Shown here one piece after another: positions 7,798-39,574 of a stretch of 39,715 nt of DNA. This DNA is from an uncultured Planctomycetales bacterium. Its GTDB lineage: Bacteria > Omnitrophota > Gorgyraeia > Zapsychrales > Fredricksoniimonadaceae. The notes beneath the pieces were generated by a model. The model was not told where the DNA came from and ran no database searches. It saw only the letters and a program-made list of their open reading frames with translations. Where the stretch lies: positions 1-39,715 of the forward strand of contig CAZCHB010000001.1 of the NCBI GenBank assembly GCA_964498235.1, given 5' to 3'. Each line of letters starts with the position of its first letter. Position 1 is the first letter of the stretch. Made by a program: the position numbers and the translations under genes.

Positions 7798-7900
7798 AAT
7801 TAATGTCCAGACTGGACATTAATTGTGATTTTTTATCAAAACAATCTCCAGTCTGACAAAATTAATGTCCAGACTGGACAATTATTGTCCAGTCTGGAAA
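7798..7900. repeat. Array of four phased copies of the TGTCCAGWCTGGACA palindrome between the tadC stop and the giant-gene promoter
   Basis: Copy A at 7798-7824 is AATTAATGTCCAGACTGGACATTAATT, a perfect 13-1-13 palindrome. Copy B is degenerate (CTCCAGTCTGACA, centre 7852). Copy C has a perfect core at 7866-7880. Copy D at 7886-7900 is TTGTCCAGTCTGGAAA. The centres 7811, 7852, 7873 and 7893 are spaced 41, 21 and 20 bp apart. Confidence 0.9.
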
Positions 7901-9716: not shown

Positions 9717-10103
9717 TCAAGGATCACAGTTAGTAGGTCCATTTTCCGACGGATTATTGTTTTCACAGCAATACGCTTTCTGCGCGTCCGTACCGCATTG
9801 CATTCTTGCATTGTCTTCGCATACCTTATCCCTCGGTCCGCATAAGGCAGCCTTGTGGGTAAAACAAACATTGTCATACCACACGCCGTAATCAGTTCTT
9901 AACTGCGCGTACGCGCATTCCGCAGTACGTGCCGTTTGATACTGGCGCCCAAAACCAAAGCTGTCGCCGGAGGTTTTCCAATGCCCGTTGAAAACCCGCA
10001 CAATACGCGGCACAGCAACATATAATGCCCCTAAAATTATCACAATAAGAACCACATACTCAATCATCGCAATCGCCCGTATGTTTGAGTGAACGCGCCT
10101 CAT
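9717..10103 (-). CDS. Pilin-like protein with a Flp/TadE-type N-terminus and a Cys-rich C-terminal half
   Basis: The N-terminus is RAIAMIEYVVLIVIILGAL (IEY followed by a hydrophobic helix). I count 8 Cys in the C-terminal 90 aa. GHWKTSGDSFG resembles the GRWKSTVDDFG / GRLKSSTDDIG motif of the 111- and 123-aa paralogs. The start overlaps the upstream stop by 1 nt (TAATG). Confidence 0.6.
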   Translation of the reverse strand: MRRVHSNIRAIAMIEYVVLIVIILGALYVAVPRIVRVFNGHWKTSGDSFGFGRQYQTARTAECAYAQLRTDYGVWYDNVCFTHKAALCGPRDKVCEDNARMQCGTDAQKAYCCENNNPSENGPTNCDP

Positions 10104-12949
10104 TATAAGGCTCCTTTATCGCATTCAGTCCCGCCGACAAATCTTAATTGAATTTGTTCGCGGCCAGCCCCATTGCGGCCCAATTGATAACGCATGCACG
10201 CCTGAGAACTGATGCCAGAGGGCAATAAGTCTTTGACCACATCCCAGCATGCCCCGCTCTTGACATTAATCATAAAGGCATTGCGTAAGTTTTTCTTGTC
10301 GGCTGAGGTTATTCCCTCTCGGATTAAGGCGTCCAGTGTCGCCTTGCTGAGCCCCACGGCATTGCCGTCGTTATCATCGCGCCCCTCGCCGCAGTATCGG
10401 TTAAGGTCATCATTAATCCTGTCCCAGTCCCTAACCGGTGATCCCGGTTTTGAAAACATCAGTTTCCAGATGGGAAACTTATTCGCAAACGAAACGCCTG
10501 CCTGGCGGTCCTGATCCCAACGGGTAATCTTCGCGGCAACCCTCCCCGTGTGAGCTTGCAGTTCATAACAACGCGTGGAACCTAAAAACCCTTTGGTATA
10601 TGTCCGCACCCACGCCAACCGATTAGGACCACAGTTTCCCTTGGGACAATTGCCCGGACCCGAAACTTCCGCGGAAACAATGTGCCAATACGGTCTCGTC
10701 GATGTTTTTACCGGCGCATCTTTCCACCCATAAATAACATATCCCGGCAATTTACTGGAAGGATCAACTAATACACCGTTATAAATATTAATCAAACTAT
10801 CAATGGGGCCGCCATCTTCTAAGAAGGGTTCTAATTTTGCCAGGAACAGATCAATAGCATTAACCAAATCCCGGGCCTTCGTCTTCATTTCTTTAATTAA
10901 ATCAAGACGGGAATTGAATTTCGTTTTCTGGTATTTTACAAAATAGTCACGGCTGTCTTGCGCCCATTTCATATACAGCGACGGCGTTGAACAAAGATCG
11001 TAAGCTGGCGCAGGCCCTACCAACGAACGCGGTAAATTTTGACAGGAAACAGGCAGAGCAGGCGCCGCACCGCCGGCGCACATTAAAAATGCCGTCTGTA
11101 AATCCGCGGCGCAATCACCGAATTTAACATCATTATCCTTATTGTAATCGAAACAAGCCTCGACGCTCTCCAAGCTTCCCCAGCTCCCTTTTGATAAAAT
11201 ATAATTCTCCTCCGCGGTGGATATCAAATTCAAAGGGTTAGCAAGCGCATTGGCCGGCAAGCACCAGGCATTGTTGGAACTGTCTACGTTATCGGTTTTA
11301 GCAAGCCAGCCATTTAACCAGTCTTTAATTTTATTTAACCGCGGCGGATATTGGCGCAAGCGGCCTTTTCCATCGGGAGTTGCGTCTGTACACTGGTGTT
11401 GGTTGGTAATAGTAGTTATCGTATACGGAGACATGTCGGAACCCGCGTCCATCGTTGTAACCACACACTTCTCCTTAGCAAACCACGTCATGGCATCCGG
11501 ATACCACTGATCAATATTTAACCTCAGCTGTGTAGCATCTCCCTTGCCTAAATTATTGCTCCAGACATAAAATTCTTTCAAACCATAAACAATGTCATCC
11601 CATCCGTCTTCCGGCCACTGCTTCTTATTGATCGATTCGGAACAAGACTTGCATTGCGCAACTCCGTCAACATCAACCGTACACGCACCGCTATGTTTGG
11701 CGCAAACATCATACGGCCAACGGGAGGAACAATACAAATCATAACCTTTCTTCCAATTAAGCCCCGGAAGCGCGCTGTCAATATCATTCGTGCACGTGTT
11801 CTCATCGGCAATCTTATAATCACTCGCAGGAAGAACATTGTCCGTAATGATCCCGGATGCAAATGAGTCCGGTGCCGCCGCAGGGCCGATAGCACGATCT
11901 GGATCTGTCAATAATTTTTCCATCCCCCAAAAAATAGAAAACAGGCCCTTGGCATCGCCTTGATGGGGGTCAAAAGGTCCATCGGGAGACGGCTGACGAA
12001 CCTCGGCATCAACGCCCATCTTGGCTAAAAATGAAGTGCCGTTTTTATAATCAGGGTACGCTGGATCATAGGCATAATAAAACGTGCTCGCGTGCGGCCA
12101 CACCGTGGTATTCGCACAGCCGGGAGGAATATTATCCGCAGAGCAATACCCCGGCCTTAACCTAGGCGCGCTATACGGGTCAAGATTTGGATCTTTAAGG
12201 GGAACACAACATGGGTTGCAATGCGGATCATTAATATCCGTACAAGGAACTGTGATTTCTGCGCTTAACCCCCTTAACGCGTTTAAAAAAAGCGTAAGAT
12301 CATCCGCCGCAACTACCTGTAAGCTTTTTAATCGTTCAGTATAATAAATCCCAAAGCGTGGCACCATGTCCTCTGGCCTGGCTCCGCTAAAACCAATCAT
12401 CCCATTGGTGTTTAAATCAAAAAGATCCGGCACTTGAATTGGATCAGTAACTACATTTTGAATCCCATTCTGCACGCCCTGCTCGACAAATTGCGCGGTA
12501 ATCGGCAAATTAGACTGCATCTTATTCCACAGCCGCGTGAGACCCGGCTGGACAACCAGCACCTGCAAAGCCAGATTTAAAACAGCCATGGCTACCGCGG
12601 CCGCCAATAATGGAGCTGTTGCTGCGCCAAATACCGCTCCGCAGGCCGCGCAAGCCACGCTCAAGAAAACAATGGCAACAACAATAAGCAAGGTCAAAAA
12701 CGCCGCAAAAATACTATTTCTTTTACAAATTTTGGAAACCCCCCCCAAACTAGTCTGCATGACTTTCTCAGCATAACTCGCATAACTGGAGCCCATGGAT
12801 GAGGCGGTCGTTGTCGCCGCTGACATGGTCAAGGTTTTGACTTGGGCAATGCGCTGCCAATTAAGTGAAATGGCAAAAAAGATAATCGCCATGGCGGTCA
12901 GCAAAATCAATATTAAGGACGCCTGTCCTTGGGCTTGTTGTCGTCTCAT
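10103..12949 (-). CDS. TadG-like large pilus-associated protein with a Cys-rich extracytoplasmic region
   Basis: The 948-aa protein begins GQASLILILLTAMAIIFFAISLNWQRIAQVKTLTMSAATTTASSMG, which resembles the TadG/Tad_N pattern. A second hydrophobic block follows, then about 800 aa containing roughly 27 Cys by my count. I saw no obvious vWA MIDAS motif. It overlaps both neighbouring genes, consistent with translational coupling. Confidence 0.55.
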   Translation of the reverse strand: MRRQQAQGQASLILILLTAMAIIFFAISLNWQRIAQVKTLTMSAATTTASSMGSSYASYAEKVMQTSLGGVSKICKRNSIFAAFLTLLIVVAIVFLSVACAACGAVFGAATAPLLAAAVAMAVLNLALQVLVVQPGLTRLWNKMQSNLPITAQFVEQGVQNGIQNVVTDPIQVPDLFDLNTNGMIGFSGARPEDMVPRFGIYYTERLKSLQVVAADDLTLFLNALRGLSAEITVPCTDINDPHCNPCCVPLKDPNLDPYSAPRLRPGYCSADNIPPGCANTTVWPHASTFYYAYDPAYPDYKNGTSFLAKMGVDAEVRQPSPDGPFDPHQGDAKGLFSIFWGMEKLLTDPDRAIGPAAAPDSFASGIITDNVLPASDYKIADENTCTNDIDSALPGLNWKKGYDLYCSSRWPYDVCAKHSGACTVDVDGVAQCKSCSESINKKQWPEDGWDDIVYGLKEFYVWSNNLGKGDATQLRLNIDQWYPDAMTWFAKEKCVVTTMDAGSDMSPYTITTITNQHQCTDATPDGKGRLRQYPPRLNKIKDWLNGWLAKTDNVDSSNNAWCLPANALANPLNLISTAEENYILSKGSWGSLESVEACFDYNKDNDVKFGDCAADLQTAFLMCAGGAAPALPVSCQNLPRSLVGPAPAYDLCSTPSLYMKWAQDSRDYFVKYQKTKFNSRLDLIKEMKTKARDLVNAIDLFLAKLEPFLEDGGPIDSLINIYNGVLVDPSSKLPGYVIYGWKDAPVKTSTRPYWHIVSAEVSGPGNCPKGNCGPNRLAWVRTYTKGFLGSTRCYELQAHTGRVAAKITRWDQDRQAGVSFANKFPIWKLMFSKPGSPVRDWDRINDDLNRYCGEGRDDNDGNAVGLSKATLDALIREGITSADKKNLRNAFMINVKSGACWDVVKDLLPSGISSQACMRYQLGRNGAGREQIQLRFVGGTECDKGAL

Positions 12950-13173
12950 TTCCAGCCTTGGAAAACCGCAGATAAAGGTTTAGGACGATAAAAATCTGTT
13001 TTTAATTGCTCATTAGGATCTGGGCTTTCCGTCAAAGATTTCTCAAAAGTCCAGCGGCGCTCCGCCAAATCCATGCCGGCCCAGCGAAAGATTTGGATCA
13101 GCCCGTACGCTAATAAAAAAAATGCTATTATCACAAAGGTAAATTCAATGGTCGATTGGCCGCGTTTTCTCAT
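12946..13173 (-). CDS. TadE-like minor pilin
   Basis: The 75-aa protein begins KRGQSTIEFTFVIIAFFLLAYGL, which has a G/QxxxEF class-III signal motif. It has 4-nt overlaps with both flanking genes. Confidence 0.65.
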   Translation of the reverse strand: MRKRGQSTIEFTFVIIAFFLLAYGLIQIFRWAGMDLAERRWTFEKSLTESPDPNEQLKTDFYRPKPLSAVFQGWK

Positions 13174-14525
13174 GGCAACCCTCCCGTACTGTCCGTCAGC
13201 CAGAAAATTCCCCGGCGGTCCATCACCCGGGAACGCACATACAGGACCTTGTCCCGTTTACTAAAACACGTCTGGGCCCTGACAACAGAACCGCTGAAAC
13301 AATCATCACGGCAAACTTCGACCGCCGGATTACGCGGGTGCGGCGAATTGCTCCCGTCACAAATAAGCCCCGTGTCACCGCTGACCCCAATACGGCGTTC
13401 AATCAACTCAACCTGATCCGCACGGCTGACACTGCGCACCATCCGCCCGTCCTCGGGATTATACAATTTCCCGTTCTTAACTTTTAAATACGTCCCTTCC
13501 TTGGTGCGCGTATAAATGGCCATGTCCGTCAAGAACCCGTCATTGGCCGATAAATTAATGTCACCTTCCTGAAAATCCAAAACCCTCAGCGTCCTAATCG
13601 CGCCGCCGGGATAATACTGAGGCACCGCATACAGCGTTTCTTCTTCCGCATCGTTATCGATATCATAATAGGGATAATTCGCGTTTGTCGCGTCAATATT
13701 AATGGAGCCCTGAATGCCTCTGACAGCATTCCACTGCCAGGCAATATCTTCGCGGCATACTTTTCCGTAAACGGAAGGCGGATTTCCAGGTCCGCAAACC
13801 AAGGGATCATCGCTAAAATCACCGCCGTTGCGGTTTAAGTCAAACCGTTCCGCCGCAGATATCGTTGAACACGGGTCAGACTCACACCAGCCGGACGTGC
13901 CGCGGGCCACATGCTCATAAAACAATTGACACCCCCGCCATCCCGCCGCATCAGGAACACATTTAAATTCCCAGCCTTTATAGCGGTAAGTCCCATTGCC
14001 GTCGGGATCAGGAGGAGTGGCATATACATCAGCATAGCGTTCTGGACAAGGCGTGATGTTTGTCTTGCACGGTGGCAAAAGTTCTTTATCCATAAGCCTG
14101 GCCATCGTAAATTGAAAATGCTTTCCATTAATAATAATGTCCATCGTCGGCAGATTACCCGGATTATATAAATCAGCTTCATCCACCGGGTACATCAGCC
14201 TATTGGTCATGGTGCCGGATCCTCTTAAATAAAATTGCTGGCGGTCCATGGCGCCGTATTTACCCACTTCCGGGGAAAGCCTGTCTTCAATATACAATAT
14301 GCTGGATGTGTTTCGTCCGACGGTAGGATTATAAGGGTCACCGTACGCCCCCTTGTAGGACAGCATCAGGGCTTCCTTCATGCTTTTTAACTGCTGGTTC
14401 TGCTGGTAGCCTGTCAGCAGGGACGAACGCACAATTGCACCAATAATAAAAATAATGATAGCGCCGAAAACAGCCAGTTCCGTCGCGGCCTGGGCTTTCT
14501 TATAATGTAGGTGCATTATTCTCAT
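13170..14525 (-). CDS. Large pilin-like protein (pseudopilin-type N-terminus, Cys-rich)
   Basis: The 451-aa protein begins KKAQAATELAVFGAIIIFIIGAIV. The remainder is hydrophilic with 12 Cys by my count. Confidence 0.5.
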   Translation of the reverse strand: MRIMHLHYKKAQAATELAVFGAIIIFIIGAIVRSSLLTGYQQNQQLKSMKEALMLSYKGAYGDPYNPTVGRNTSSILYIEDRLSPEVGKYGAMDRQQFYLRGSGTMTNRLMYPVDEADLYNPGNLPTMDIIINGKHFQFTMARLMDKELLPPCKTNITPCPERYADVYATPPDPDGNGTYRYKGWEFKCVPDAAGWRGCQLFYEHVARGTSGWCESDPCSTISAAERFDLNRNGGDFSDDPLVCGPGNPPSVYGKVCREDIAWQWNAVRGIQGSINIDATNANYPYYDIDNDAEEETLYAVPQYYPGGAIRTLRVLDFQEGDINLSANDGFLTDMAIYTRTKEGTYLKVKNGKLYNPEDGRMVRSVSRADQVELIERRIGVSGDTGLICDGSNSPHPRNPAVEVCRDDCFSGSVVRAQTCFSKRDKVLYVRSRVMDRRGIFWLTDSTGGLP

Positions 14526-14533
14526 ATCCGTCT

Positions 14534-14869
14534 CTAATTACTGCCGACGATTGTATTGCCGTTCTTCGTCTCAACCGATGTCGTATTATCTAAACGTGTG
14601 GTGTAATAACCCGGCTGGCCCGTAATAGGATGCAAGTCCAGATGCCCAACGCCAATTTGTGTTTCGGAATTAGAAATTAAGGAATAGTCTGTCTGTGAAT
14701 TGGTGGTGTCCGGATCATATTGCTCGCCGAAATCATCCACCGTTGATTTCCAGCGTCCTTGAAAGCCCCGCTTAAAATACATCTGCATGGTGATAAAAAC
14801 AGCAATAATAATGACCACCAAAACCGTGTATTCCAACGTGCTCTGAGCTTTTCTTTTGAACATCATCAT
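14534..14869 (-). CDS. Flp/TadE-type pilin-like protein
   Basis: The 111-aa protein begins KRKAQSTLEYTVLVVIIIAVF. It is a paralog of the 123-aa product (KRGFQGRWKSTVDDFGEQYDPDTTN versus KRGVQGRLKSSTDDIGDQYSEGNTN). Confidence 0.65.
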   Translation of the reverse strand: MMMFKRKAQSTLEYTVLVVIIIAVFITMQMYFKRGFQGRWKSTVDDFGEQYDPDTTNSQTDYSLISNSETQIGVGHLDLHPITGQPGYYTTRLDNTTSVETKNGNTIVGSN

Positions 14870-14881
14870 ATGCTCCCTGAT

Positions 14882-15271
14882 TTATTTATCATCATCCAAG
14901 GTAAAACCCATATTGGTGATAACTTCAGTTGTTGAGCTTGTCACTTCATTGGCCGTCGTCGTTGACTTATAATTTGACGGATAATAAGTGATGCCGGTGA
15001 TCGCGTTATAAATACCCGTACTTGGAAAATTTTTCTCGTTGACCGAACGCTGGTTGTTAACCCTGCTTTGGGTCGTCATCCGGGTTAGGTGGCTTTGGTC
15101 AAAACTAAAGTCCTGTTCCGCGGCGTTCTGGTAGGCCAACTGGTCGGAGGTGCCGCGTATCACCGTCTGCACCCCGCGTTTAAACGCCGGCCCCATCGCA
15201 TATAACGCCGTGATGACGATGCCTATCAATATGACATATTCCACTATTGTCTGCCCCTGCGTTTTCGTCAT
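14882..15271 (-). CDS. Flp/TadE-type pilin-like protein
   Basis: The 129-aa protein begins TKTQGQTIVEYVILIGIVITALYAM, which has the G/QxxxEY motif followed by a hydrophobic helix. Confidence 0.65.
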   Translation of the reverse strand: MTKTQGQTIVEYVILIGIVITALYAMGPAFKRGVQTVIRGTSDQLAYQNAAEQDFSFDQSHLTRMTTQSRVNNQRSVNEKNFPSTGIYNAITGITYYPSNYKSTTTANEVTSSTTEVITNMGFTLDDDK

Positions 15272-15720
15272 TTCGCATACACCGGTGATATCTGGTTGCT
15301 TTGTGACTGTGCCTGTGTTTGGCTTGAATCCGATTTTGTAAATATGCCAGGCCCTGTCAGCGCCTTGGTTTCTGCGCTGTCTCTCTCAACAATTGAATTA
15401 ACCTGAACATAATACGGCTCATACTCATAGGCCATCTTTCCAGCGTTCATTCCAGCCGCGCCCTGACAATCCGTCGTCCCTTGCGATACATCCACATCCA
15501 CACAGCCTTGAGCCATCATATCAACCATATAAATCTTCGCATCGCGCTCCCTAGCCTGCAGGGTCCGCTGCACATAAATTGAGACGGCCATTATCGCGGT
15601 CACAGCCACAAAAAATGCCACGACAAACTCCGGCAAAACAATTTGTCCCCGATTAGATATCCGCCGCATCATTGCATCATAATAGCCCCAAGCCGGGAAA
15701 TCTTCCCGGCCTGGAGCCAT
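15268..15720 (-). CDS. Pilin-like protein (the true start may be the Met pair at 15672/15669)
   Basis: The 150-aa ORF contains MMRRISNRGQIVLPEFVVAFFVAVTAIMAV. It is a paralog of the 126-aa product (QRTLQARERDAKIYMVD / QRALQARVRDANVYMTS; YEPYYVQVNSIVERDSAETKAL / YEPYYQQSNYEVTRDSVENKRL). Confidence 0.6.
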   Translation of the reverse strand: MAPGREDFPAWGYYDAMMRRISNRGQIVLPEFVVAFFVAVTAIMAVSIYVQRTLQARERDAKIYMVDMMAQGCVDVDVSQGTTDCQGAAGMNAGKMAYEYEPYYVQVNSIVERDSAETKALTGPGIFTKSDSSQTQAQSQSNQISPVYAK

Positions 15721-15744
15721 CCTTATTATACTGTTGACGCTAAA

Positions 15745-16116
15745 CTACTTGCCCCAGTATTCCTGCTGTGAATTCAAGATCTGGGAATTTTCTACCGTGT
15801 TGGTTGTTTCCTTGTCGATCATCTGCGACACAGATATACCCTGCGCGGCTACGCCTGAAGCATTCATACCAAACAATTCCTTGGTCTTTGAATGAACCTT
15901 GGTTTGCTTGATGGCGTTTGTGTTACCTTCTGAATATTGATCGCCGATATCATCGGTCGAACTTTTCAGGCGCCCTTGCACACCGCGCTTGATATAATTC
16001 TGCACGGTCAATAAAGCACCGACAATAATAATGACCAGCACCGCGTACTCCAGGGTGCTCTGGCCGCGGCGATGTCCGCTTAATGGTCCTTTCATCGCAT
16101 GAAAGTGTCTAAACAT
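15745..16116 (-). CDS. Flp/TadE-type pilin-like protein
   Basis: The 123-aa protein has the leader MFRHFHAMKGPLSGHRRG followed by QSTLEYAVLVIIIVGALL. Confidence 0.65.
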   Translation of the reverse strand: MFRHFHAMKGPLSGHRRGQSTLEYAVLVIIIVGALLTVQNYIKRGVQGRLKSSTDDIGDQYSEGNTNAIKQTKVHSKTKELFGMNASGVAAQGISVSQMIDKETTNTVENSQILNSQQEYWGK

Positions 16117-17207: not shown

Positions 17208-18617
17208 CTAATTCTCCTCGGAAACACACTTAACATTAATGCTCAAAATTTGGTCCGCTTCGTTTTTAACCCCCAGCGTACTGATTGCAGCACACCCTGA
17301 TTTTAGATTGTCCGCTGTTTCATAAACATTTGGAATTAATAGTGTTACAATCCTAATGTGACTATTAAAAGCGATTTGCCCTTTAAATAACATTAATTGA
17401 GACCACTGATCGTCGCTTAAAAGCCTTGGAAAACAAGACTGCGCCTGCAGCTTTAGGAAATCAATATAATTATTGACCGGTCCCTCGGGACTTTCCGCCA
17501 TAGATAAGGGCCCGTTAAAAGGATGCTGTTTAAAAAATTCGCGCACAATTTCCCCGTCGCTAATCGACTCAGAAAAATTGCTAATGAGAACCTTATAGGG
17601 CTCATTATTCTCTGCGCATAAAATCACTGCGCGGCATTTCATGTTAGCTAACAAGATTTCTTTAGCAAAAAATCTCAGCGGCGCCTCTTGGCCGTAAGCG
17701 TCAACTATTAACATTTCTTTGTTTGAAATATTCATAAATTCTTTTATATCAACTACTTGTGTTCCTATCCCAACAATAAACTGCTTTTTGGGCGCACCTT
17801 CTAAAGGAAAACTGACAAACGCTTCTCCCTCTTTATCCAAAAGATCTATTTTAACAATGCCTTTCCCCGGCCGCCCTTGACACGATAAGAAAAAGTCAAA
17901 AAAGAAGGCCTCAAGCGATTCTCCTGCAACCTCTTTTATTACAATAGGTTGTAAATTGTTTACAAAAAGATTAGCCGCTGCTGTCAGCGCCCTCTCCAGC
18001 GGGGCCGGCCAATTTTTGCCCTCTTTCGCCTGAAGCCCTTGCAAGCGGCTATCCACACAAAAAGAGCTCCCATCTTCTAATAAAAATCTATAACCATAAA
18101 TCACCAAAGACCTATAAAGCAGTTCTTCCTTTAAACTATTGAAATCAAATGATTTAAAATCTTCTAGCGAGCTCATCCCCCGCCATGGTTTGGGAAAAAA
18201 ATCGTAATGCACGGCTTTTAAAATATACTCTCCCGCCCCTTGCTGAATCCCAGCATCTGTTAGCGCCATTAGCGGTTCATGATTAACTGTTTTAACTGCC
18301 GTTGGCAGCTCAATTTTTTCGTGCTTAACGAAAACAGGAGAGGGGCTTGCTTCTTCCAATGGCTTTACGCGCGGTTGAACAAATAACTGCGCCTTCTTTT
18401 CATAAGGAATTTGAAATTTTTCTTTTTGTTTACGGCCGCGGGGACTGCCAATTTTAGCTTCAATTAATACTTCATTGATAGATGATTTTGACACTTGGCG
18501 TTCGAATTGTGTTTGAATTTGATGCGCTAATTCCCGACAGGATAATTGGGGCAATTCACGCTTTTGCGTTAAAATAAAATGGACAATCTCTTCTGTCAGC
18601 TTATATTTAACGCCCAC
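17208..18617 (-). CDS. Unknown protein with an N-terminal helix-turn-helix-like domain, embedded in the Tad operon
   Basis: The 469-aa ORF has a GTG start. Residues 1-60 (KLTEEIVHFILTQKRELPQLSCRELAHQIQTQFERQVSKSSINEVLIEAKIGSPRGRKQ) look like a small HTH domain. I recognise no family in the rest. A palindrome copy lies 19-37 nt upstream of the start. Confidence 0.5.
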   Translation of the reverse strand: MGVKYKLTEEIVHFILTQKRELPQLSCRELAHQIQTQFERQVSKSSINEVLIEAKIGSPRGRKQKEKFQIPYEKKAQLFVQPRVKPLEEASPSPVFVKHEKIELPTAVKTVNHEPLMALTDAGIQQGAGEYILKAVHYDFFPKPWRGMSSLEDFKSFDFNSLKEELLYRSLVIYGYRFLLEDGSSFCVDSRLQGLQAKEGKNWPAPLERALTAAANLFVNNLQPIVIKEVAGESLEAFFFDFFLSCQGRPGKGIVKIDLLDKEGEAFVSFPLEGAPKKQFIVGIGTQVVDIKEFMNISNKEMLIVDAYGQEAPLRFFAKEILLANMKCRAVILCAENNEPYKVLISNFSESISDGEIVREFFKQHPFNGPLSMAESPEGPVNNYIDFLKLQAQSCFPRLLSDDQWSQLMLFKGQIAFNSHIRIVTLLIPNVYETADNLKSGCAAISTLGVKNEADQILSINVKCVSEEN

Positions 18618-18635
18618 CCTATATTTCCCCTAAAC

Positions 18636-18654
18636 AATGTCCAGACTGGACATT
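18636..18654. repeat. Palindrome copy E (AATGTCCAGACTGGACATT, perfect 9-1-9) between DUF192 and the HTH gene
   Basis: The core at 18638-18652 is exact. A left half-site TTGTCC at 18658-18663 implies a second centre about 21 bp away, the same geometry as copies C and D. Confidence 0.9.
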
Positions 18655-18664
18655 TAATTGTCCG

Positions 18665-19003
18665 TCACCAGCTGATTTGATCGCCGACGGCTGTACTGGT
18701 GCGTTCAATTGTACCAGCAGGAAGTTCAATGGCGCAAGCAGATTTCCAGAAAATAGGAGAGAGGTTAAAAGGCCTCAGGTTAGGGCAAAGGCCGACAACA
18801 ATGTTAACTTTATCGACAAAAATAACATCAATGGAAAAGCGCATAAAAAACATATGGACTGATTGGCAAGGCCTGATAATCAATCCCTCGCCTTGTTTTA
18901 ACGCATGCCTGCCAAGCAATCCTTTCATGCGCGCCAAAGACGTGTCAGCGAACACTGCGCTGTCCGCCAATTCACAATGACGTGTATTATTAAGGATTTT
19001 CAA
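18665..19003 (-). CDS. DUF192 (COG1430) family protein
   Basis: The 112-aa protein matches the DUF192 pattern (ADTSLARMKGLLGRHALKQGEGLIIRPCQSVHMFFMRFSIDVIFVD...AIELPAGT). It overlaps the ATPase gene by 14 nt. Confidence 0.6.
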   Translation of the reverse strand: MKILNNTRHCELADSAVFADTSLARMKGLLGRHALKQGEGLIIRPCQSVHMFFMRFSIDVIFVDKVNIVVGLCPNLRPFNLSPIFWKSACAIELPAGTIERTSTAVGDQISW

Positions 19004-21161
19004 TTTTTTTAAATATAGCCTCGCTAAGCGGGATGCCGCGGGTCAGAAAATCGTCAAATGCTTTCGGAATATATCCCGTCGGTATATACTCACCTAAAAC
19101 AACCCCTTCAGGATTGATGCCCTTTTGTTTGAAAACAAAAATATCTTTCATCTCCGGCATCCCTTCGTTCATCTGACCGGTTAACTCTGTAATGGCCGTT
19201 ATTTTGCGGGATCCGTCAGAAAAACGGTTAATCTGGACAATAATATTTATTGCGGATGCGGACATTTCATAAATAGCACGAATAGGCAGTTCAATGCCGG
19301 ACAATAGCACCATTGAGCTTAGGCGCGCCAGAACGTCCCGCGGTGTATTCGCATGCAAGGTTGTCAACGACCCGTCGTGACCCGTGTTCATCGCCTGGAG
19401 CATGTCAAGCACCTCAGGCCCGCGGCACTCACCAATAATAATCCGATCAGGACGCATACGCAGCGTGTTAATAAATAGGTCGCGGATAGAGATACGGCCC
19501 TTGCCTTCAATATTGGGCGGGCGTGATTCTAAGCGAGCCCAATGGCTTTTAGATAATCGCAATTCTGCGGCATCTTCAATGGTGATGATGCGCTCGTTAT
19601 CCGGAATAAACTGGGAAACAATGTTAAGCAGAGTTGTCTTCCCGGCCCCGGTGCCGCCGGAAACTATAATATTTTTACGCCCAATGACGCACGCATTTAA
19701 AAAATCCGCCATGGGTTGGGAAATGCTGTGGAACTTTGTTAACAAATCATCAATGGTGTAACGTTCGCTGGAAAATTTCCGAATCGTTATCATCGGGCCG
19801 TTTAAAGACAACGGCGGAATGATGGCGTTAATACGGCTTCCGTCGGGTAAACGGGCATCCACCATCGGGGTTGACTCGTCAACCCGCCGGCCGAGGGGGG
19901 CAATAATACGGTCAATGGTCGCCCTTACCTGATCATTTGAAATAAAACGTTTGTTTGTCAGGATTAATTTTCCGCGTTTCTCAACAAATATCTCGTCCTT
20001 GCTGTTGACCATGATATCGTTAATTTCAGGATCCGCTAAGAAATCTTCCAACGCCCCAAGGCCCAGAGCTTCATTAACAATCTCGCGCACAAGACGGGAA
20101 CGCTCTTCCTGCGACGAGAGAAACGCGCCGGAAGCCTCTGCTAACAGGTCGGTAATTATTTTTTCCGCCGCTTTGCGGATATTGGCCGACTGCGCCGGGT
20201 CCGTCAGCGCTTCCGGTGATATTTTCTGCAGATTCATCCGCTCAACTAAACGCAAGTGAATAGCTTTCTTTAACTTAACAACTTCATCTTCTTCTTTATT
20301 AAACCCTAAATTCTTTGCCGTTCCTGAATTCGGCGCGATACCAAACTTTTGCCAGAATTCATTTCCTTTTTTAGATGTTTCATCGGCGCTTCGAACCTTG
20401 ATCACATCCGATCCCTGCACAAAAATATCTTCACTTTGAAGCCGTTCCGCGATTTCAAAAAATACTTCTGCCACCTTCATTTTTGGACTATCTATCACGC
20501 AAGGAACTCCGCGGTTTAACGCCATGCCTACTGTTTTCCCGTCGGAAGGAATCAGGGTAAAAATATCGCAAGCAATCGCCGTCTTAACCTCCTGCCATGC
20601 GACACCGCCGCGGCTTTCTGCCCTATTAAGGATCAGCTTAATCATTTTAAGCGGATAATGAAGGCTTTGAATAATTTCCAAGGATGTTTTCGCTTGATAA
20701 ACGGCTAAAATATCAGGTGTCGCCACTAGAAAAATAAGGTTGGCCGAATCAAAAATGCTGATCAAAATTTCGCTGAAGATGTTTCCAGCGTCAATGATGA
20801 TAAAATCGTAAAGTTGGGATGATTTTTTAAAAAATGGGCGGATATTGTCCGCAGTAATGTGGCCAGCCTGCCGTAAATGGTTAACCCCTGGAAGGAAATC
20901 CAACCCGCTGACATGGCGGGTCACATATTTATTAATAATGTCCGGCTTATCATTTTTATCAATCTCTGATAGAAGATCGACGAGAGAATAAGCCGTTGAC
21001 AAATTAAGCATGCGCGCCATGTCCTGGCTCGCGTGCAAGTCCATGTCAACTAAAAGGACGCGGCGGCCTTTAATGGCCAGAGCGGCCGCCGTATTAACAC
21101 TGGCAAACGTCTTGCCGACCCCGCCTTTATTTGAAAAAAATGTGATTGTTTTTGAAGACAT
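18990..21161 (-). CDS. tadA: Fusion protein: an N-terminal ParA/MinD-type (TadZ/CpaE-like) ATPase domain joined to a C-terminal CpaF/TadA secretion ATPase
   Basis: The 723-aa protein has a deviant Walker A (FFSNKGGVGKTFASVNTAAAL...VLLVDMDL) in the first 250 aa or so. From about aa 330 it has CpaF-type motifs: GGTGAGKTTLLN (Walker A), RIIIGECRGPEVLDMLQAMNTGHDGSLTTLHAN. Confidence 0.85.
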   Translation of the reverse strand: MSSKTITFFSNKGGVGKTFASVNTAAALAIKGRRVLLVDMDLHASQDMARMLNLSTAYSLVDLLSEIDKNDKPDIINKYVTRHVSGLDFLPGVNHLRQAGHITADNIRPFFKKSSQLYDFIIIDAGNIFSEILISIFDSANLIFLVATPDILAVYQAKTSLEIIQSLHYPLKMIKLILNRAESRGGVAWQEVKTAIACDIFTLIPSDGKTVGMALNRGVPCVIDSPKMKVAEVFFEIAERLQSEDIFVQGSDVIKVRSADETSKKGNEFWQKFGIAPNSGTAKNLGFNKEEDEVVKLKKAIHLRLVERMNLQKISPEALTDPAQSANIRKAAEKIITDLLAEASGAFLSSQEERSRLVREIVNEALGLGALEDFLADPEINDIMVNSKDEIFVEKRGKLILTNKRFISNDQVRATIDRIIAPLGRRVDESTPMVDARLPDGSRINAIIPPLSLNGPMITIRKFSSERYTIDDLLTKFHSISQPMADFLNACVIGRKNIIVSGGTGAGKTTLLNIVSQFIPDNERIITIEDAAELRLSKSHWARLESRPPNIEGKGRISIRDLFINTLRMRPDRIIIGECRGPEVLDMLQAMNTGHDGSLTTLHANTPRDVLARLSSMVLLSGIELPIRAIYEMSASAINIIVQINRFSDGSRKITAITELTGQMNEGMPEMKDIFVFKQKGINPEGVVLGEYIPTGYIPKAFDDFLTRGIPLSEAIFKKIENP

Positions 21162-21229: not shown

Positions 21230-22948
21230 TTAATAAGTAACTTGGGCGGATCCTGTATTCACCCTTTCTCCCTGCTTATAGATAACCGGGAAACAAATTG
21301 AGATAAAATCTCCAGTCATGTCTGCTGGAAATGGCTCAAAAGGCGCGGAAATCTTTACCGCGTTTAATGCGTCTTCATCTAAAATCGAATGCCCTGAAGA
21401 TTTCTCGGCAAGGACATTTGTCAATGATCCGTCTTTTAGAATATGAAGCCTCACCTTGACGGTCCCCTGCTGATTGTTTTTAGCCGCTTCATCAGGATAT
21501 GTAATGTGCTGTGATACCTTCATTTGAACAGCTCGCACATAATCCGCATCCGCGAAAGCTTCTTGAGGACTAACAGCTTCTGCCTTAGTCTCAACTGGCT
21601 GCGGCGCGGGTGCCGTTGGAGCTGGCGTTGAGTCAGCGCCAGGGATAGGTTCAAACTCGACTTCATTAATCGTATCCATTTCTTTGGTAAAGGCTTTGGC
21701 TTTTTCGGAAGGCATCTTTACCTGCTCCGTGGCAAATTGTTTTGAACGCATGATGGTTGGCGTTAATGTGATGACCAATTCCTTGCCTTCATCGGGAGCC
21801 TGCTTTGACGTGTTTCTAAATAACAGCCCAACAACTGGAATTTTACTAAAGAACGGCACCCGTCTATTTTGTTCACTATCGTTGTAGCGGATAAGGCCGG
21901 CAAATACAACCGTCTGCCTGTCATCAAGCAATAATTGTGTTTGAGCCGAGCGGGTTTTATATGCAATGTCGCTTGTCTTAGTGGCTTGGATGGTAAATGT
22001 CTTATCCACGTCACTGACCTGAAGATTCATGACAACGTCGATTTTTCCTTCTTTAATCGTCGGTGTAACTGTCAAGGTGACGCCATACTGCTTGAATGTC
22101 GTGCTGGCTGTTTGAACCCCGCTTCCCTGCGAAGACGTAATGGACTGAATGGGAACTTCTCCGCCGACGTTAATCGTTGCCTCTTTACCGCTGCTGACAA
22201 GGATGCGCGGCCTGGAAAGATCACGAGCCTTGCCTTCCCGGATCATCAAATTAACCGTGTTAACAATAGCGGTGGTCCTGTTAAATTTACCAAATTTAAA
22301 CCAATCTTTCGCGCCGCCAGTCGGCAGGCCGGATTCTTGGTAATCTAAATTTAATGAGCTTCCAACGGCTCCACCTTGCCAATCAATCCCCAAATTTTTA
22401 TCCAAGGTAGTGCCTAATTCCGTGATCTGCATATCAATTTGTATTAAGTCCTTGCTAACTTCTTCTTTAGACAAATTAATAATCTGTTCGCTGTATGGTT
22501 CGAGTATTTTGTCTAAAAGGCTTTTCTTCTCCTTTAGATATCCGCCCGATACAATTATTCTTCCTTCGCCTGCGTTCGCTTCTAAATTGATCCCGTTAAT
22601 TTCCGCCTCCGTTAACAAATGACGGATGCGCTCCTGCATGGCTTTTAAGTCTTCGCTGGTGACGCGCACATTGATCGAATGTTTACCTTCTTCATCCCAC
22701 AAGAAAACAGATGTCTGTCCGGGCTTTTTTGCTAATATAGATACAACGCCTTCTTTGGCGTCAGCTACATCCGCGATATCTGGTGTGGTCACTGAAACGC
22801 GGGAAAGATTCTTAACTTCTACGTTTTGCAAATCGCCTATAACCATGTTCATGTCCGCCGTCGTATCTGAAAAAACCGGCACCGGAGGAACAACCAACGA
22901 TAAGATAAGAAACAAAGATAGGGTTACGGCTTTATTGTTATTCTTCAT
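21230..22948 (-). CDS. cpaC: CpaC/RcpA-type secretin with a C-terminal TonB_C-like domain
   Basis: The 572-aa protein has a signal peptide (VTLSLFLILSLVVPPVPVFSD) and a secretin core (RRVPFFSKIPVVGLLFRNTSK). A Pro-rich linker (PGADSTPAPTAPAPQPVETK) precedes ITYPDEAAKNNQQGTVKVRLHILKDGSLTNVLAEKSSGHSILDEDALNAVKISAPFEPFP, which matches the TonB C-terminal pattern YP..A....G.V.V.F.I..dG.V....V..SSG...LD.aAl.AV....F.P. Confidence 0.8.
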   Translation of the reverse strand: MKNNNKAVTLSLFLILSLVVPPVPVFSDTTADMNMVIGDLQNVEVKNLSRVSVTTPDIADVADAKEGVVSILAKKPGQTSVFLWDEEGKHSINVRVTSEDLKAMQERIRHLLTEAEINGINLEANAGEGRIIVSGGYLKEKKSLLDKILEPYSEQIINLSKEEVSKDLIQIDMQITELGTTLDKNLGIDWQGGAVGSSLNLDYQESGLPTGGAKDWFKFGKFNRTTAIVNTVNLMIREGKARDLSRPRILVSSGKEATINVGGEVPIQSITSSQGSGVQTASTTFKQYGVTLTVTPTIKEGKIDVVMNLQVSDVDKTFTIQATKTSDIAYKTRSAQTQLLLDDRQTVVFAGLIRYNDSEQNRRVPFFSKIPVVGLLFRNTSKQAPDEGKELVITLTPTIMRSKQFATEQVKMPSEKAKAFTKEMDTINEVEFEPIPGADSTPAPTAPAPQPVETKAEAVSPQEAFADADYVRAVQMKVSQHITYPDEAAKNNQQGTVKVRLHILKDGSLTNVLAEKSSGHSILDEDALNAVKISAPFEPFPADMTGDFISICFPVIYKQGERVNTGSAQVTY

Positions 22949-35668: not shown

Positions 35669-35812
35669 GTGAAAAAGCATTTAAAAACACCAACGAATTT
35701 AGTAGGAAAAAAAAGACACGGTTTTCGTAAACGCATGGCTACCGCCGACGGAAGAGAAGTATTAGCCCGCCGCCGCGCTAAAGGCCGTCGAAAGCTTATT
35801 CCATCAGCCTAA
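35669..35812 (+). CDS. rpmH: 50S ribosomal protein L34 (47 aa, GTG start; not in the ORF track)
   Basis: My hand translation is [47 protein letters not shown]. This contains the L34 signature HGFRxRMAT..GRxVLxRRRAKGR. Confidence 0.9.
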
Positions 35813-35818
35813 ATTATA

Positions 35819-36040
35819 TTGTTAACAATGATCCCAAAGGTTCTTATTGCTACCATCAGAATCTATCAGCAGGCATCCTTCCTGTTGGCAATTCGATGTT
35901 GCCGTTTTTATCCTTCGTGCTCACAGTATGCGATTGATGCTGTATCCAAACATGGCGTAACCCGAGGAACTGCAATGGCTTTTAATCGTATTTTACGCTG
36001 CTCACCATTATCCCAAGGCGGATTTGATCCAGTAAGGTAG
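35819..36040 (+). CDS. yidD: Membrane protein insertion efficiency factor YidD (the real start is possibly the ATG at 35828)
   Basis: The motif [45 protein letters not shown] is the YidD signature. Confidence 0.85.
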
Positions 36041-36047
36041 ATAAACA

Positions 36048-37610
36048 ATGAATCAGAAGACACTTTTAGCAATTATTCTTTCCATTATGGTTCTATTTGG
36101 GTATGAAGCTATATTTGTTGCTCCAAAACGTGCCCAAATGTTAAAAGAATCGAAAAGTATTACTGAAAAAGAACTTACGCAAAATAAAGAAATTTTAACT
36201 CAGGTCACGGACGCCGTCCAAGAAAAAACCAAAAACAAGCAATTTGAAGGCAAAATATGGGAAATTAAAACCCCTTCATTTGTATCACATGTGACAAATG
36301 AGGGCGGCGCGCTCCATAATATTAAGGTGGGGGCAGGACACGCCTTTCCTTTAAACCAAATTATCACCATCAAGGGGATTAGTGAGTCGGAATTCAAATT
36401 GGTTTCACAAAACGCAGATAAGACGGTTTTATCATACCAAGATGATAAAAAGAGGGTTTTAAAGACATATGAAGTTAAGGATCGGAATACAATTTTAGCC
36501 AGAGTGGACATTAATTCAAAAGAAATGTCCAGTCTGGACAATGTTCAGTTTCAGATTTTCAGAGTGGACAATTCTTTGATTGATAGTAATGACAAACGTG
36601 ACATGGGGCTGGAGGAGTACTCAGTATCAGCTAATAAGAAAATATTTAGAAAAAACAATATTTCGAAATTTAATCCAAAAGAAAATAAGATTGAATCGAT
36701 TGATATTGACTGGGCAGGATTCCGGAATCATTTTTCAACCATTGTTATTCATCCTGATTTTGCGACGAAAGCCTATGAAATAAATACAGTTACAGAAAAA
36801 CAGTTAAGTATATATGTGACGCCTGCAAGCCAAAGCACCAGCTATGAATTTACCTGCTATATAGGACCTCAAGATCCAGCGCTCATGAAGAAGTACGAAA
36901 AGGGGATTGAAAACATATTTGCCTTTTTTAATTGGAATGTGCTCGATATTTTTGCCAAGGCAATATATTTCACAATTCCTTTTCTACATTCTATATTTAA
37001 AAGTTGGGGATTTAGTATTATTTTGATTAGTCTGATTATTTATGGGTTAACATATCCGCTAACATTTAAAAGCATGATGTCTATGCGAAAAATGCAGCAA
37101 GTCCAGCCGAAGATCAAGGCATTACAAGACCGTTTTAAAAATGACCCGCAGAAGCTAAATACTGAAATTATGGATATATACAAGAAAGAAAAGATTAATC
37201 CGCTGGGGGGGTGTTTACCGTTCCTGCTTCAAATGCCCATTTTTGTTGCTTTATATCAAGTGTTGTGGAGATCTTATTATTTTCAAGGAGAATCATTTCT
37301 ATGGATTAAAGATTTAGCCCTGCCTGACAGGCTATTTATTATGCCTTTTTCCTTGCCTTTATTAGGAAATGAATTTAATATATTACCATTGTTAATGGCG
37401 GCAGTTATGTTTTTACAACAGAAGATTTCGTCTAAAAATTTGGTTGTCACCGACGAGCAGCAGGCTATGCAGCAAAAAATGATGTTATATTTATTTCCGA
37501 TTTTTATAGGTTTTATTTTTTATAAATTTGCCAGCGGGCTATCGCTATATTTTACTGTTTTTTATGCTTTATCCGCCGCAACGCAGTGGAAAATGAGTAA
37601 GATAAAATAG
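36048..37610 (+). CDS. yidC: Membrane protein insertase YidC (long form with a periplasmic P1 domain)
   Basis: The 520-aa protein has an N-terminal TM segment and the conserved core NPLGGCLPFLLQMPIFVALYQVL...LYLFPIFIGFIFYKFASGLSLYF. Confidence 0.93.
   Translation: MNQKTLLAIILSIMVLFGYEAIFVAPKRAQMLKESKSITEKELTQNKEILTQVTDAVQEKTKNKQFEGKIWEIKTPSFVSHVTNEGGALHNIKVGAGHAFPLNQIITIKGISESEFKLVSQNADKTVLSYQDDKKRVLKTYEVKDRNTILARVDINSKEMSSLDNVQFQIFRVDNSLIDSNDKRDMGLEEYSVSANKKIFRKNNISKFNPKENKIESIDIDWAGFRNHFSTIVIHPDFATKAYEINTVTEKQLSIYVTPASQSTSYEFTCYIGPQDPALMKKYEKGIENIFAFFNWNVLDIFAKAIYFTIPFLHSIFKSWGFSIILISLIIYGLTYPLTFKSMMSMRKMQQVQPKIKALQDRFKNDPQKLNTEIMDIYKKEKINPLGGCLPFLLQMPIFVALYQVLWRSYYFQGESFLWIKDLALPDRLFIMPFSLPLLGNEFNILPLLMAAVMFLQQKISSKNLVVTDEQQAMQQKMMLYLFPIFIGFIFYKFASGLSLYFTVFYALSAATQWKMSKIK
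36499..36576. repeat. Three palindrome-family sites at exact 30-bp spacing inside the yidC coding sequence
   Basis: F1 is CCAGAGTGGACATTAATT (centre 36503). F2 has a perfect core TGTCCAGTCTGGACA at 36526-36540 (centre 36533). F3 is CAGAGTGGACAATT (centre 36563). The region encodes ARVDINSKEMSSLDNVQFQIFRVDNS. Confidence 0.85.
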
Positions 37611-37614
37611 CACA

Positions 37615-37821
37615 ATGATATTCGAAGGTGATACAAAAGAGTTTGAGGGTTGTACAGTAGAAGAGGCTATTTGTAAGGCGGAAAAGTCTTTTGGTGCGTC
37701 ACGTGAAACCATGCAAATTAAGATTGTTTGTGAAGAGCAAAAAGGTCTATTTGGGATGAGGGGCGCAAAATTGGCCAAGATAAAGGTCAAATCCGTTCCA
37801 CGTGGAACTAAGAAGTCCTGA
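37615..37821 (+). CDS. Jag/KhpB N-terminal-domain-only protein (no KH or R3H domains)
   Basis: The 68-aa protein sits in the canonical jag position after yidC. EGCTVEEAICKAEKSFGASRETMQIKIVCEEQKGLFGMRGAKLAKIKV fits the Jag_N pattern. Confidence 0.6.
   Translation: MIFEGDTKEFEGCTVEEAICKAEKSFGASRETMQIKIVCEEQKGLFGMRGAKLAKIKVKSVPRGTKKS
37695..37710. promoter_or_regulatory. Degenerate parS-like site (13/16 match)
   Basis: TGCGTCACGTGAAACC compared with the consensus TGTTNCACGTGAAACA. Confidence 0.35.
37794..37809. promoter_or_regulatory. Near-canonical parS centromere site
   Basis: CGTTCCACGTGGAACT has a perfectly palindromic inner 14 bp (GTTCCACGTGGAAC) identical to the conserved parS core TGTTCCACGTGGAACA. 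It lies 67 nt upstream of the parA start. Confidence 0.8.
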
Positions 37822-37829
37822 ATTTTTAA

Positions 37830-37851
37830 ATTAATGTCCAGTCTGGACAAT
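37830..37851. repeat. Palindrome copy G (ATTAATGTCCAGTCTGGACAAT) between parS and the parA start
   Basis: The perfect core is at 37835-37849 (centre 37842), 34 nt upstream of the parA ATG. A weak half-site GTCCTG is centred 21 bp upstream at 37821. Confidence 0.9.
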
Positions 37852-38685: not shown

Positions 38686-39574
38686 AGTTTTAGGCAAGGG
38701 GTTGTCAGCTTTAATACCGCAGCGCAAAACAGAGCAATATGTGTCTGTTTATTCAGAAGAAAAAAACAATGTCCATTCTGAAAGCAATAAAAAAGATGAA
38801 TTAATGTCCAGTCTGGACATTAATTTAATAAGAAACAACCGTTTTCAGCCGCGCAAAAATTATGATGAGTCTAAACTAGGCGAATTAAAAGCTTCAATTA
38901 AAGAAAAAGGCGTGCTTCAGCCTATTTTAGTACGTCCAGTTGGTAATGAATATGAAGTTGTAGCAGGGGAGCGCCGCTTAAGGGCCTCAAGAGAACTGAA
39001 CTTAAAAAAAGTGCCTGTTATTATTAAAAATATTACCGATCGCGAAGCTTTAGTTTTAGCATTGGTTGAAAATATCCAGCGGGAAGAATTAAACCCCATT
39101 GAAGAAGCCCAAGGGTTTAAGCGTTTGATCGAAGAATTTAATTTTACGCAGGAAACAGTGGCGGACTCAGTTGGCAAAGACCGCACAACCGTTACCAATT
39201 TTTTGCGATTGCTGAAACTGCCAAAAGAAATTCAAGATTTTGTTGCTTCGGATAAATTGTCGGTTGGACATGCGCGTACGTTGTTAAGTCTCGACGAGAA
39301 AATGCAAAAAAAGACAGCGGCGGATATTATAGCTAAAGGCTTGTCTGTCCGTCAGGTTGAGGCCATGGTTAAGAAAATTCTCGAAGGCCATCTAGCTGGC
39401 GCGCCTAAGAAAATCTCTTCTAAAGTGCGGGATATACAGATTCTCGAGGAGGAATTAAGCCGGACGCTGGGGACCAAGGTCTGTGTTGAAAATAAAAACA
39501 ATAAAGGCAGGGTTGTTATTGAATATTATTCATTAGACGACTTAGACCGTATTTTAGGAGTTATAAGAAAATGA
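38675..39574 (+). CDS. parB: Chromosome partitioning protein ParB/Spo0J
   Basis: The 299-aa protein contains LGKGLSALI, FQPRKNYDESKLGELKASIKEKGVLQPILVRP, GERRLRAS (CTP-binding box) and the HTH QETVADSVGKDRTTVTNFLRLL. Confidence 0.93.
   Translation: MDNKVLGKGLSALIPQRKTEQYVSVYSEEKNNVHSESNKKDELMSSLDINLIRNNRFQPRKNYDESKLGELKASIKEKGVLQPILVRPVGNEYEVVAGERRLRASRELNLKKVPVIIKNITDREALVLALVENIQREELNPIEEAQGFKRLIEEFNFTQETVADSVGKDRTTVTNFLRLLKLPKEIQDFVASDKLSVGHARTLLSLDEKMQKKTAADIIAKGLSVRQVEAMVKKILEGHLAGAPKKISSKVRDIQILEEELSRTLGTKVCVENKNNKGRVVIEYYSLDDLDRILGVIRK
38799..38825. repeat. Palindrome copy H2: a perfect 27-bp palindrome inside the parB coding sequence
   Basis: AATTAATGTCCAGTCTGGACATTAATT is the exact reverse complement of copy A at 7798-7824. 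It encodes ELMSSLDINL. A degenerate copy (AATGTCCATTCTGAAAG) is centred at 38777. Confidence 0.9.

Follow-up and report, generated by a model that had tools for sequence, protein, structure and literature searches.

A palindrome upstream of a helix-turn-helix gene in the Tad locus of an Omnitrophota bacterium as a predicted autoregulatory operator

Autoregulated repressors and the Omnitrophota locus

Negatively autoregulated helix-turn-helix (HTH) repressors, among them LexA, regulators of the TetR family and phage proteins of the cI/Cro type, have dyad operators that overlap or flank their own promoters. Operators may also be located inside transcription units and repress as roadblocks, as is the case for lac O2 and for the intragenic CcpA and CodY sites of Bacillus subtilis. 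The palindrome analysed here resembles the former circuits in being a short perfect dyad with the regulator gene immediately downstream and in belonging to a small predicted regulon with identical operators; moreover, the corresponding sites in relatives cover the transcription start, abut the -35 element and stand about six helical turns apart. It differs from them in that the adjacent 469-aa protein falls into no described family and carries a 350-aa C-terminal domain without a fold match, that the focal site occupies a promoterless intercistronic gap, and that additional conserved sites are found inside the essential genes yidC and parB. With the roadblock systems it shares a dyad, of presumably high affinity, which lies downstream of any possible promoter and between or inside co-directional genes. 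Judging from the sequence, it is most likely an ordinary autoregulatory operator in kind, belonging to an undescribed regulator family.

The ultra-small, uncultured Omnitrophota are presumed to live as predators or parasites, and a Tad-like locus together with adjacent giant genes represents the main candidate for their attack machinery (PMC10066038; bioRxiv 10.1101/2023.11.21.568195). Three published descriptions of the Tad-like or T2SS-like locus and giant genes in this phylum (PMC10066038; bioRxiv 10.1101/2023.11.21.568195; bioRxiv 10.64898/2026.06.07.730766) mention neither an HTH regulator nor an operator or a palindrome.

The window, i.e. the whole stretch of 39,715 nt that was analysed, represents the chromosomal origin region, with dnaA, dnaN, a DciA-like gene, gyrB and gyrA on the minus strand and rpmH, yidD, yidC, a 68-aa Jag_N ORF, parA and parB on the plus strand (Table 1). 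It should be added that the putative rpmH and yidD genes precede yidC with no rnpA-sized ORF in between, and that the Tad/Cpa locus contains a single-ORF fusion of a ParA/MinD-like (CpaE/TadZ) protein with a CpaF/T2SSE ATPase, as well as a secretin with a C-terminal TonB_C domain.

Table 1. Features of the window around the palindrome copies, the Tad/Cpa locus and the origin genes
Feature	Position	Strand	Remarks
Giant gene			>2515 aa
Tad/Cpa locus	7.9-23.8 kb		cpaB, secretin-TonB_C fusion, CpaE-CpaF fusion, DUF192, HTH gene, flp/pilin genes, tadB, tadC
Sister copy	7802-7820		between tadC and giant gene
Sister copy	7864-7882		20 bp from the degenerate copy
Degenerate copy	7885-7899		
Terminator-like stem	7868-7898	minus	formed by the two preceding copies
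469-aa regulator gene	17208-18617	minus	GTG start at 18617; from translation
AT-hook-like motif	18438-18452		aa 56-60 of the regulator
DUF192 to HTH-gene gap	18618-18664		47 nt
Shine-Dalgarno AGGGG of HTH gene	18627-18631	minus	9 nt before GTG; read from sequence
Focal palindrome	18636-18654		19 bp, perfect, plus-strand reading; predicted operator of the 469-aa HTH protein
TTGTCC auxiliary half-site	18658-18663		directly after DUF192 stop codon; candidate only
DUF192 gene	18665-19003	minus	Pfam DUF192, E 2.5e-18; TGA stop at 18665-18667; co-directional, immediately upstream of HTH gene
Weak -10-like element	18708-18713		inside DUF192
CpaE-CpaF fusion; secretin	18990-21161; 21230-22948		
Putative rpmH	35669-35812	plus	
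Putative yidD	35819-36040	plus	
Sister copy	36524-36542		inside yidC; degenerate flanking copies at 36496 and 36556 (30-bp spacing)
Jag_N ORF	37615-37821	plus	68 aa
Degenerate second parS copy	37696-37709		inside Jag_N ORF, 99 bp upstream of perfect core
Canonical parS core	37795-37808		inside Jag_N ORF, just before parA
Sister copy	37833-37851		54-nt jagN-parA gap, 24 nt before parA ATG
Sister copy	38803-38821		inside parB, about 130 nt into the coding sequence

The palindrome, the adjacent regulator and sites in relatives

The focal palindrome, AATGTCCAGACTGGACATT, is built of two 9-nt arms around a single central nucleotide (AATGTCCAG-A-CTGGACATT), and its core TGTCCA-N3-TGGACA corresponds to the general form of the motif. 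Allowing one mismatch, six matches were counted in the window against 0.00 in 100 shuffles, and the whole draft genome (1.98 Mb in 262 contigs) contained the same six sites only, even with up to two mismatches. The similarity between the copies ends some 4 nt beyond the palindrome, within A/T-rich flanks (TTAA/AATT), which points at a compact binding site and not at a mobile repeat. A repeat of the REP or MITE type was considered separately and rejected on the grounds of the six genomic copies and of flanks that are unrelated beyond about 4 nt.

The description of this gap in the earlier note was largely borne out: the perfect 9-1-9 palindrome upstream of the HTH gene and the 47 nt separating that gene from DUF192 were both confirmed, and the distance to the GTG codon, given there as 19 nt, was essentially right, the count being 18 nt. 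Its comparison of a full plus degenerate site with the 7866/7886 pair also holds, that pair being spaced by 20 bp. The TTGTCC half-site proposed in the same place fared less uniformly. It is present, and its TGTCC starts 21 bp after the TGTCC of the left palindrome arm, as claimed; conservation was not found, no such half-site being seen beside the orthologous sites of G011, G009 and G012, and taken alone the half-site is statistically not compelling.

The promoter scan reported no minus-strand sigma-70-like promoter in the 47-nt gap or just upstream of it. Classical promoter occlusion is thus ruled out in the genome of the window, and the operator, if functional, would act either as a roadblock or at about +47 to +65 relative to a promoter inside DUF192. 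Visual inspection of DUF192 shows an extended -10-like element (TTGCGC-18-TGgTACAAT), weak and unreported by the scan; it may be fortuitous, overlapping a conserved ELPAG coding motif common to relatives.

The 469-aa protein encoded downstream of the gap has a three-helix HTH near its N-terminus (aa ~9-53), connected by a disordered linker (aa ~58-117) to a C-terminal domain of about 350 aa. The GTG start is right, since all orthologues begin with MGVxYKL. Only about the first 80 aa are well conserved, with the consensus MGVxYKL..EVVDFI..QK...P.LSCR.L...V...F...VSKSSVN.VLK...LSSPVGR, and the recognition helix VSKSS is invariant across 36 genomes. In the AlphaFold2 model, calculated from an alignment of 11 sequences and with a mean pLDDT of 61, aa 9-53 form a three-helix bundle predicted with confidence (pLDDT 82-88), the linker (aa 58-117) is disordered, and the C-terminal domain has an alpha/beta structure of moderate confidence. 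An AT-hook-like motif (SPRGRK / SPVGRR) follows the HTH and is conserved across the regulator family; together with the A/T-rich flanks of the palindrome, it suggests an added contact in the minor groove.

Searches against Pfam and NCBIfam returned sub-threshold matches only, to HTH domains of transposase type (HTH_32, HTH_Tnp_Tc3_2 and IS481/IS630 models), the best of them being HTH_32 and HTH_Tnp_Tc3_2 over aa 5-76, and the C-terminal 350 aa had no Pfam match. Foldseek comparison of the AlphaFold2 model with the PDB gave no meaningful match (TM ≤0.12), nor did a sequence search of the PDB. In a word-indexed homology search the regulator itself was the sole match, and a search for related loci found none. 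Exhaustive HMMER search yielded 561 cluster representatives of 450-650 aa at E ≤1e-3; there were no characterised members among the representatives returned with a source name, and one homologue is named by NCBI as a Candidatus Omnitrophota protein, in agreement with the Tad loci and giant genes published for this phylum. The regulator belongs to an undescribed family of uncultured Omnitrophota bacteria. It was found in 36 of the 41 genomes of the order, including all 30 good ones, and in the genomes with compared coordinates its gene lies within ~10-12 kb of tadC. Among the Pfam-scanned ORFs of the locus, those outside 9717-16116, it was the only one with a match to a DNA-binding domain.

The N-terminal HTH of IS481/IS630-type transposases (HTH_32, HTH_Tnp_Tc3_2) is the closest, if sub-threshold, match to the regulator, and a domesticated transposase or mobile element was considered accordingly. 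This reading was rejected: Pfam, NCBIfam and Foldseek gave no sign of a DDE or an rve domain, the gene is not flanked by terminal inverted repeats, and no copy of the palindrome stands at its 3' end. Unlike these transposases, the regulator gene is single-copy, syntenic and conserved across the class.

For comparative analysis, the regions upstream of regulator orthologues were taken from 56 genomes representing several orders of the class. ATGTCCA in sense orientation was present within 150 nt upstream of 36 of the 56 orthologues (mean in shuffles 0.5, maximum 4), and AATGTCCA was the most widespread upstream 8-mer in these 56 genomes, ahead even of the -35 hexamer. Promoters of the sigma-70 type, with at least 9 of 12 positions matched, were recognised before 36 of the 56 orthologues. 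In 32 occurrences the site begins 0-30 nt downstream of the -10 element (mode 10-17) and so covers the transcription start and the leader. The start of a second site often falls at about -39 to -49, so that it adjoins or overlaps the -35 element, typically 63-64 bp from the first, i.e. about six helical turns away. This promoter-overlapping geometry is a repressor-type layout. It can be added that in the loci L069-L087, from other orders, two operators flank the regulator promoter at the recurrent spacing of 63-64 bp. In family f26, which belongs to another order, the proximal site reads AATGTCCAAWCTGGAGG, and its second arm (CTGGAGG) doubles as the Shine-Dalgarno sequence, 19 nt from the start codon.

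Closer to the window's genome, the order DUF192 stop, palindrome, HTH gene is also found in G011 and G012, and the focal site is thus orthologous and no local accident; an orthologous site precedes the HTH start in G009 as well. The genus-mates G002, G003 and G005 have no own-gene site, the HTH gene abutting DUF192 there. In these three genomes the sites in parB and before the giant gene follow a variant, TTTCCAG-N-CTGGAAA (G005:C1:238028 and 274689; G002:C16:24669), and in G001 the HTH gene is preceded by a hybrid, TTTCCAG-T-CTGGACA. This G-to-T shift of the half-site from TGTCCA to TTTCCA is not accompanied by any evident change in the recognition helix.

Sister copies and co-occurrence of protein and motif

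Exact copies of TGTCCAGNCTGGACA were found in 7 of 40 relatives, with a chance expectation of about 0.005 per genome. They stand before the HTH orthologue (G011, G009), twice in the gap between tadC and the giant gene (G019), and inside the coding sequences of yidC (G019, and twice in G028) and parA (G038). In another order, the genomes with an exact copy have one each; eight of them have it in parB, within the first ~100 nt or so of the gene, and two have it before the giant gene. The parB placement seen in the window is shared with those eight genomes and, in the form of the TTTCCAG variant, with the genus-mates.

At the giant gene, the TGGACA arm of the 7802-7820 copy may serve as the -35 element of a promoter-like site (TGGACA-16-TACTAT) facing that gene, a coincidence consistent with its repression, and orthologous sites upstream of the giant gene were recorded in G019, G135, G247 and G005. 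On the minus strand, the two adjacent copies next to it pair as a stem of 14 bp, with CATTAATTTT behind it, immediately past the stop codon of tadC, and were scored as terminator-like by a simple scan; the Tad operon might thus end at this operator array, or the array might act as a secondary terminator. The copy before parA mirrors the focal site in its geometry, and no promoter was called in its 54-nt gap. Intragenic yidC sites orthologous to that of the window occur in G019 and G028. The copies inside yidC and parB are unexplained by a simple repressor model, and conserved sites within the coding sequences of yidC, parA and parB are unusual for a simple transcription factor.

Co-occurrence was assessed in a phylum sample of 301 genomes, with a threshold of E ≤1e-5 for the HTH N-terminal domain. 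The domain was detected in 70 genomes, all of them in the class of the window (70/193; 0/108 in the other classes). The exact palindrome was present in 18 of the 301 genomes, and 13 of these 18 were HTH-positive (Fisher p ~7e-6 overall and 8e-4 within the class, both values being inflated by kinship among the genomes). Three of the five exceptions (G058, G081, G094) have the motif in unrelated contexts, two of them with a C/G centre, and they fit chance, because ~1.3 chance matches are expected in the sample. The G058 match (G058:C3:34632, L060) is an exact TGTCCAGTCTGGACA in a 98%-complete genome of the class with neither the HTH protein nor a TadC of this type. The remaining two, G265 (site in parB) and G247 (site before the giant gene), have genuine-context sites in metagenome-assembled genomes (MAGs) that are 93-95% complete, and no regulator orthologue was found in them even by profile search. 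The TadC type is more widespread than the regulator, being present, for example, in five genomes of another class and also in families f25 and f35; no exact motif was found in those Tad-positive, HTH-negative lineages.

These data bear on the wider proposals of the earlier note. Its suggestion that the HTH protein may autoregulate through the motif gains support from comparative genomics, both from the own-gene sites (36/56) and from the co-occurrence, and the array at the giant gene is reinforced as a candidate target by copies recurring at orthologous places in other families. For the parA/parB region the outcome was mixed: copies recur inside parB, parA or yidC, and the one in the jagN-parA gap was seen in none of the relatives examined. 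The proposed check of protein against motif came out in favour, 13 of 18 motif genomes being HTH-positive and none of the 108 genomes outside the class carrying the protein, with G265 and G247 as exceptions that show the motif without a detected orthologue.

Proposed mechanism, competing explanations and meaning

We consider it likely, from sequence comparison, that the focal palindrome is an operator bound by a dimer of the adjacent 469-aa protein through its N-terminal HTH, and that the protein is thereby autoregulated. Each monomer would take one ATGTCCA half-site, possibly aided by contacts between the AT-hook-like PRGRK motif and the A/T-rich flanks. Negative autoregulation would be the ancestral and still widespread arrangement in the class, the regulator gene having its own TTGACA-17-TATAnT promoter with one site over the transcription start and leader and a second site often abutting the -35 element. 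In the genome of the window, the regulator gene would have been drawn into the Tad operon behind DUF192, with the operator kept in the 47-nt gap, where it would hinder transcription as a roadblock or, given a promoter within DUF192, work as a leader operator. Either mode would throttle the regulator gene and the downstream pilin, tadB and tadC genes, and the sister sites before the giant gene and near parA/parB may be targets of the same protein. The comparisons show the site, its rarity, its conservation at orthologous positions, the promoter geometry in relatives and the co-occurrence with the protein; from these we infer which protein binds, in which direction it regulates and how it would act in the genome of the window. 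Points against are the gap in which the scan found no promoter, the genus-mates without an own-gene site, the TTTCCAG variant with its unchanged helix, the genomes G265 and G247, and the intragenic sites in yidC, parA and parB.

Several of these points equally speak for a different DNA-binding protein of the class that would bind the palindrome and regulate the HTH gene with no autoregulation involved: G265 and G247 have genuine-context sites and no detectable HTH orthologue, the half-site shifts from TGTCCA to TTTCCA among members of one genus with no change in the recognition helix, and the own-gene site is missing in three genus-mates. We regard this as unlikely, however, for the site precedes the HTH gene in most of the 56 genomes, across several orders and in the classical autoregulatory layout, the motif was not found in the Tad-positive, HTH-negative families, and the exceptions G265 and G247 are incomplete MAGs. 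The palindrome could also act as RNA, that is, as a hairpin of the polycistronic Tad transcript that terminates or attenuates transcription, serves in RNA processing or stabilisation, or controls translation next to the Shine-Dalgarno sequence. The position of the focal site in an intercistronic gap without promoter would fit, as would the terminator-like hairpin with a T tail scored for the paired copies at 7868-7898 and the fixed overlap of the second arm with the Shine-Dalgarno sequence in another order. The fold of the 81-nt transcript (-14.9 kcal/mol, z = -0.92), in contrast, is no better than that of shuffles, and an intrinsic terminator or hairpin at the focal site was rejected, with no terminator called and a tail reading GTTTAGGGG. 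Furthermore, many orthologous sites are single half-sites unable to form a hairpin, the six genomic copies are few when compared with REP elements, and the extra copies upstream of the -35 element are untranscribed, which favours recognition of DNA over that of RNA. A role as RNA hence appears quite improbable.

Another possibility is that the palindrome is a centromere-like or origin-organising site, either a non-canonical parS or the site of another segregation protein, the copy at the HTH gene being one of an origin cluster. As with parS/ParB sites, the copies cluster near the origin, all six within 31 kb of dnaA and parAB, and three are intragenic (yidC, parB) or next to parA, as parS often is; the parB copy is moreover conserved across orders. 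Still, we give very little credence to this possibility. The palindrome was rejected as a non-canonical parS, since it shares only TGT with the consensus tGTTNCACGTGAAACa, and canonical cores stand separately from it between yidC and parA. The core in the window, GTTCCACGTGGAAC, is likely a true ParB site distinct from the palindrome, and one or two exact GTTNCACGTGNAAC cores occur in 24 of the 41 genomes of the order, usually paired at ~100-140 bp in the same place. Family f26 has no exact canonical parS cores; it keeps its own single GTTCC-N4-GGAAC element downstream of a TTGACA-17-GATAAT parA promoter, besides a TGTCCAG palindrome inside parB. Nearly all genomes have ParB, but the motif is restricted to lineages with the HTH protein and follows the HTH gene and not ParB, with half-sites tracking the promoter of that gene wherever it lies. 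As a side observation, the f26 element, located in the jagN-parA gap (L054, L056-L058, L062-L064), is of the GTTCC-CCGG-GGAAC type, with parS-like arms and a centre that resembles the Noc-binding site (CCCGGG), and it may reflect a shifted ParB specificity.

If the palindrome is, as we favour, an autoregulatory operator, the regulator might also couple the predatory apparatus of Tad pilus and giant protein, physically or transcriptionally, to the chromosome partition region. The parS pair is bracketed by the sites in yidC, in the jagN-parA gap and at the 5' end of parB, the last of these being conserved across orders; such sites could bound the sliding of ParB, or link the expression of parAB or the positioning of the origin to the use of the attack machinery. 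This extension is speculative and, in our view, rather unlikely to be true.

The analysis defines a candidate regulator-operator pair, consisting of a 79-aa domain and a 15-19-bp site, which is testable in Escherichia coli, the organism itself being uncultured; a promoter-operator of family f26, TTGACA-17-TATAnT with AATGTCCAATCTGGAGG, is of a type suited for a reporter. The candidate pair would provide a handle on the timing of pilus and giant-protein production and predicts a regulon across the class, and the conserved sites in parB and yidC hint at a link to chromosome segregation.
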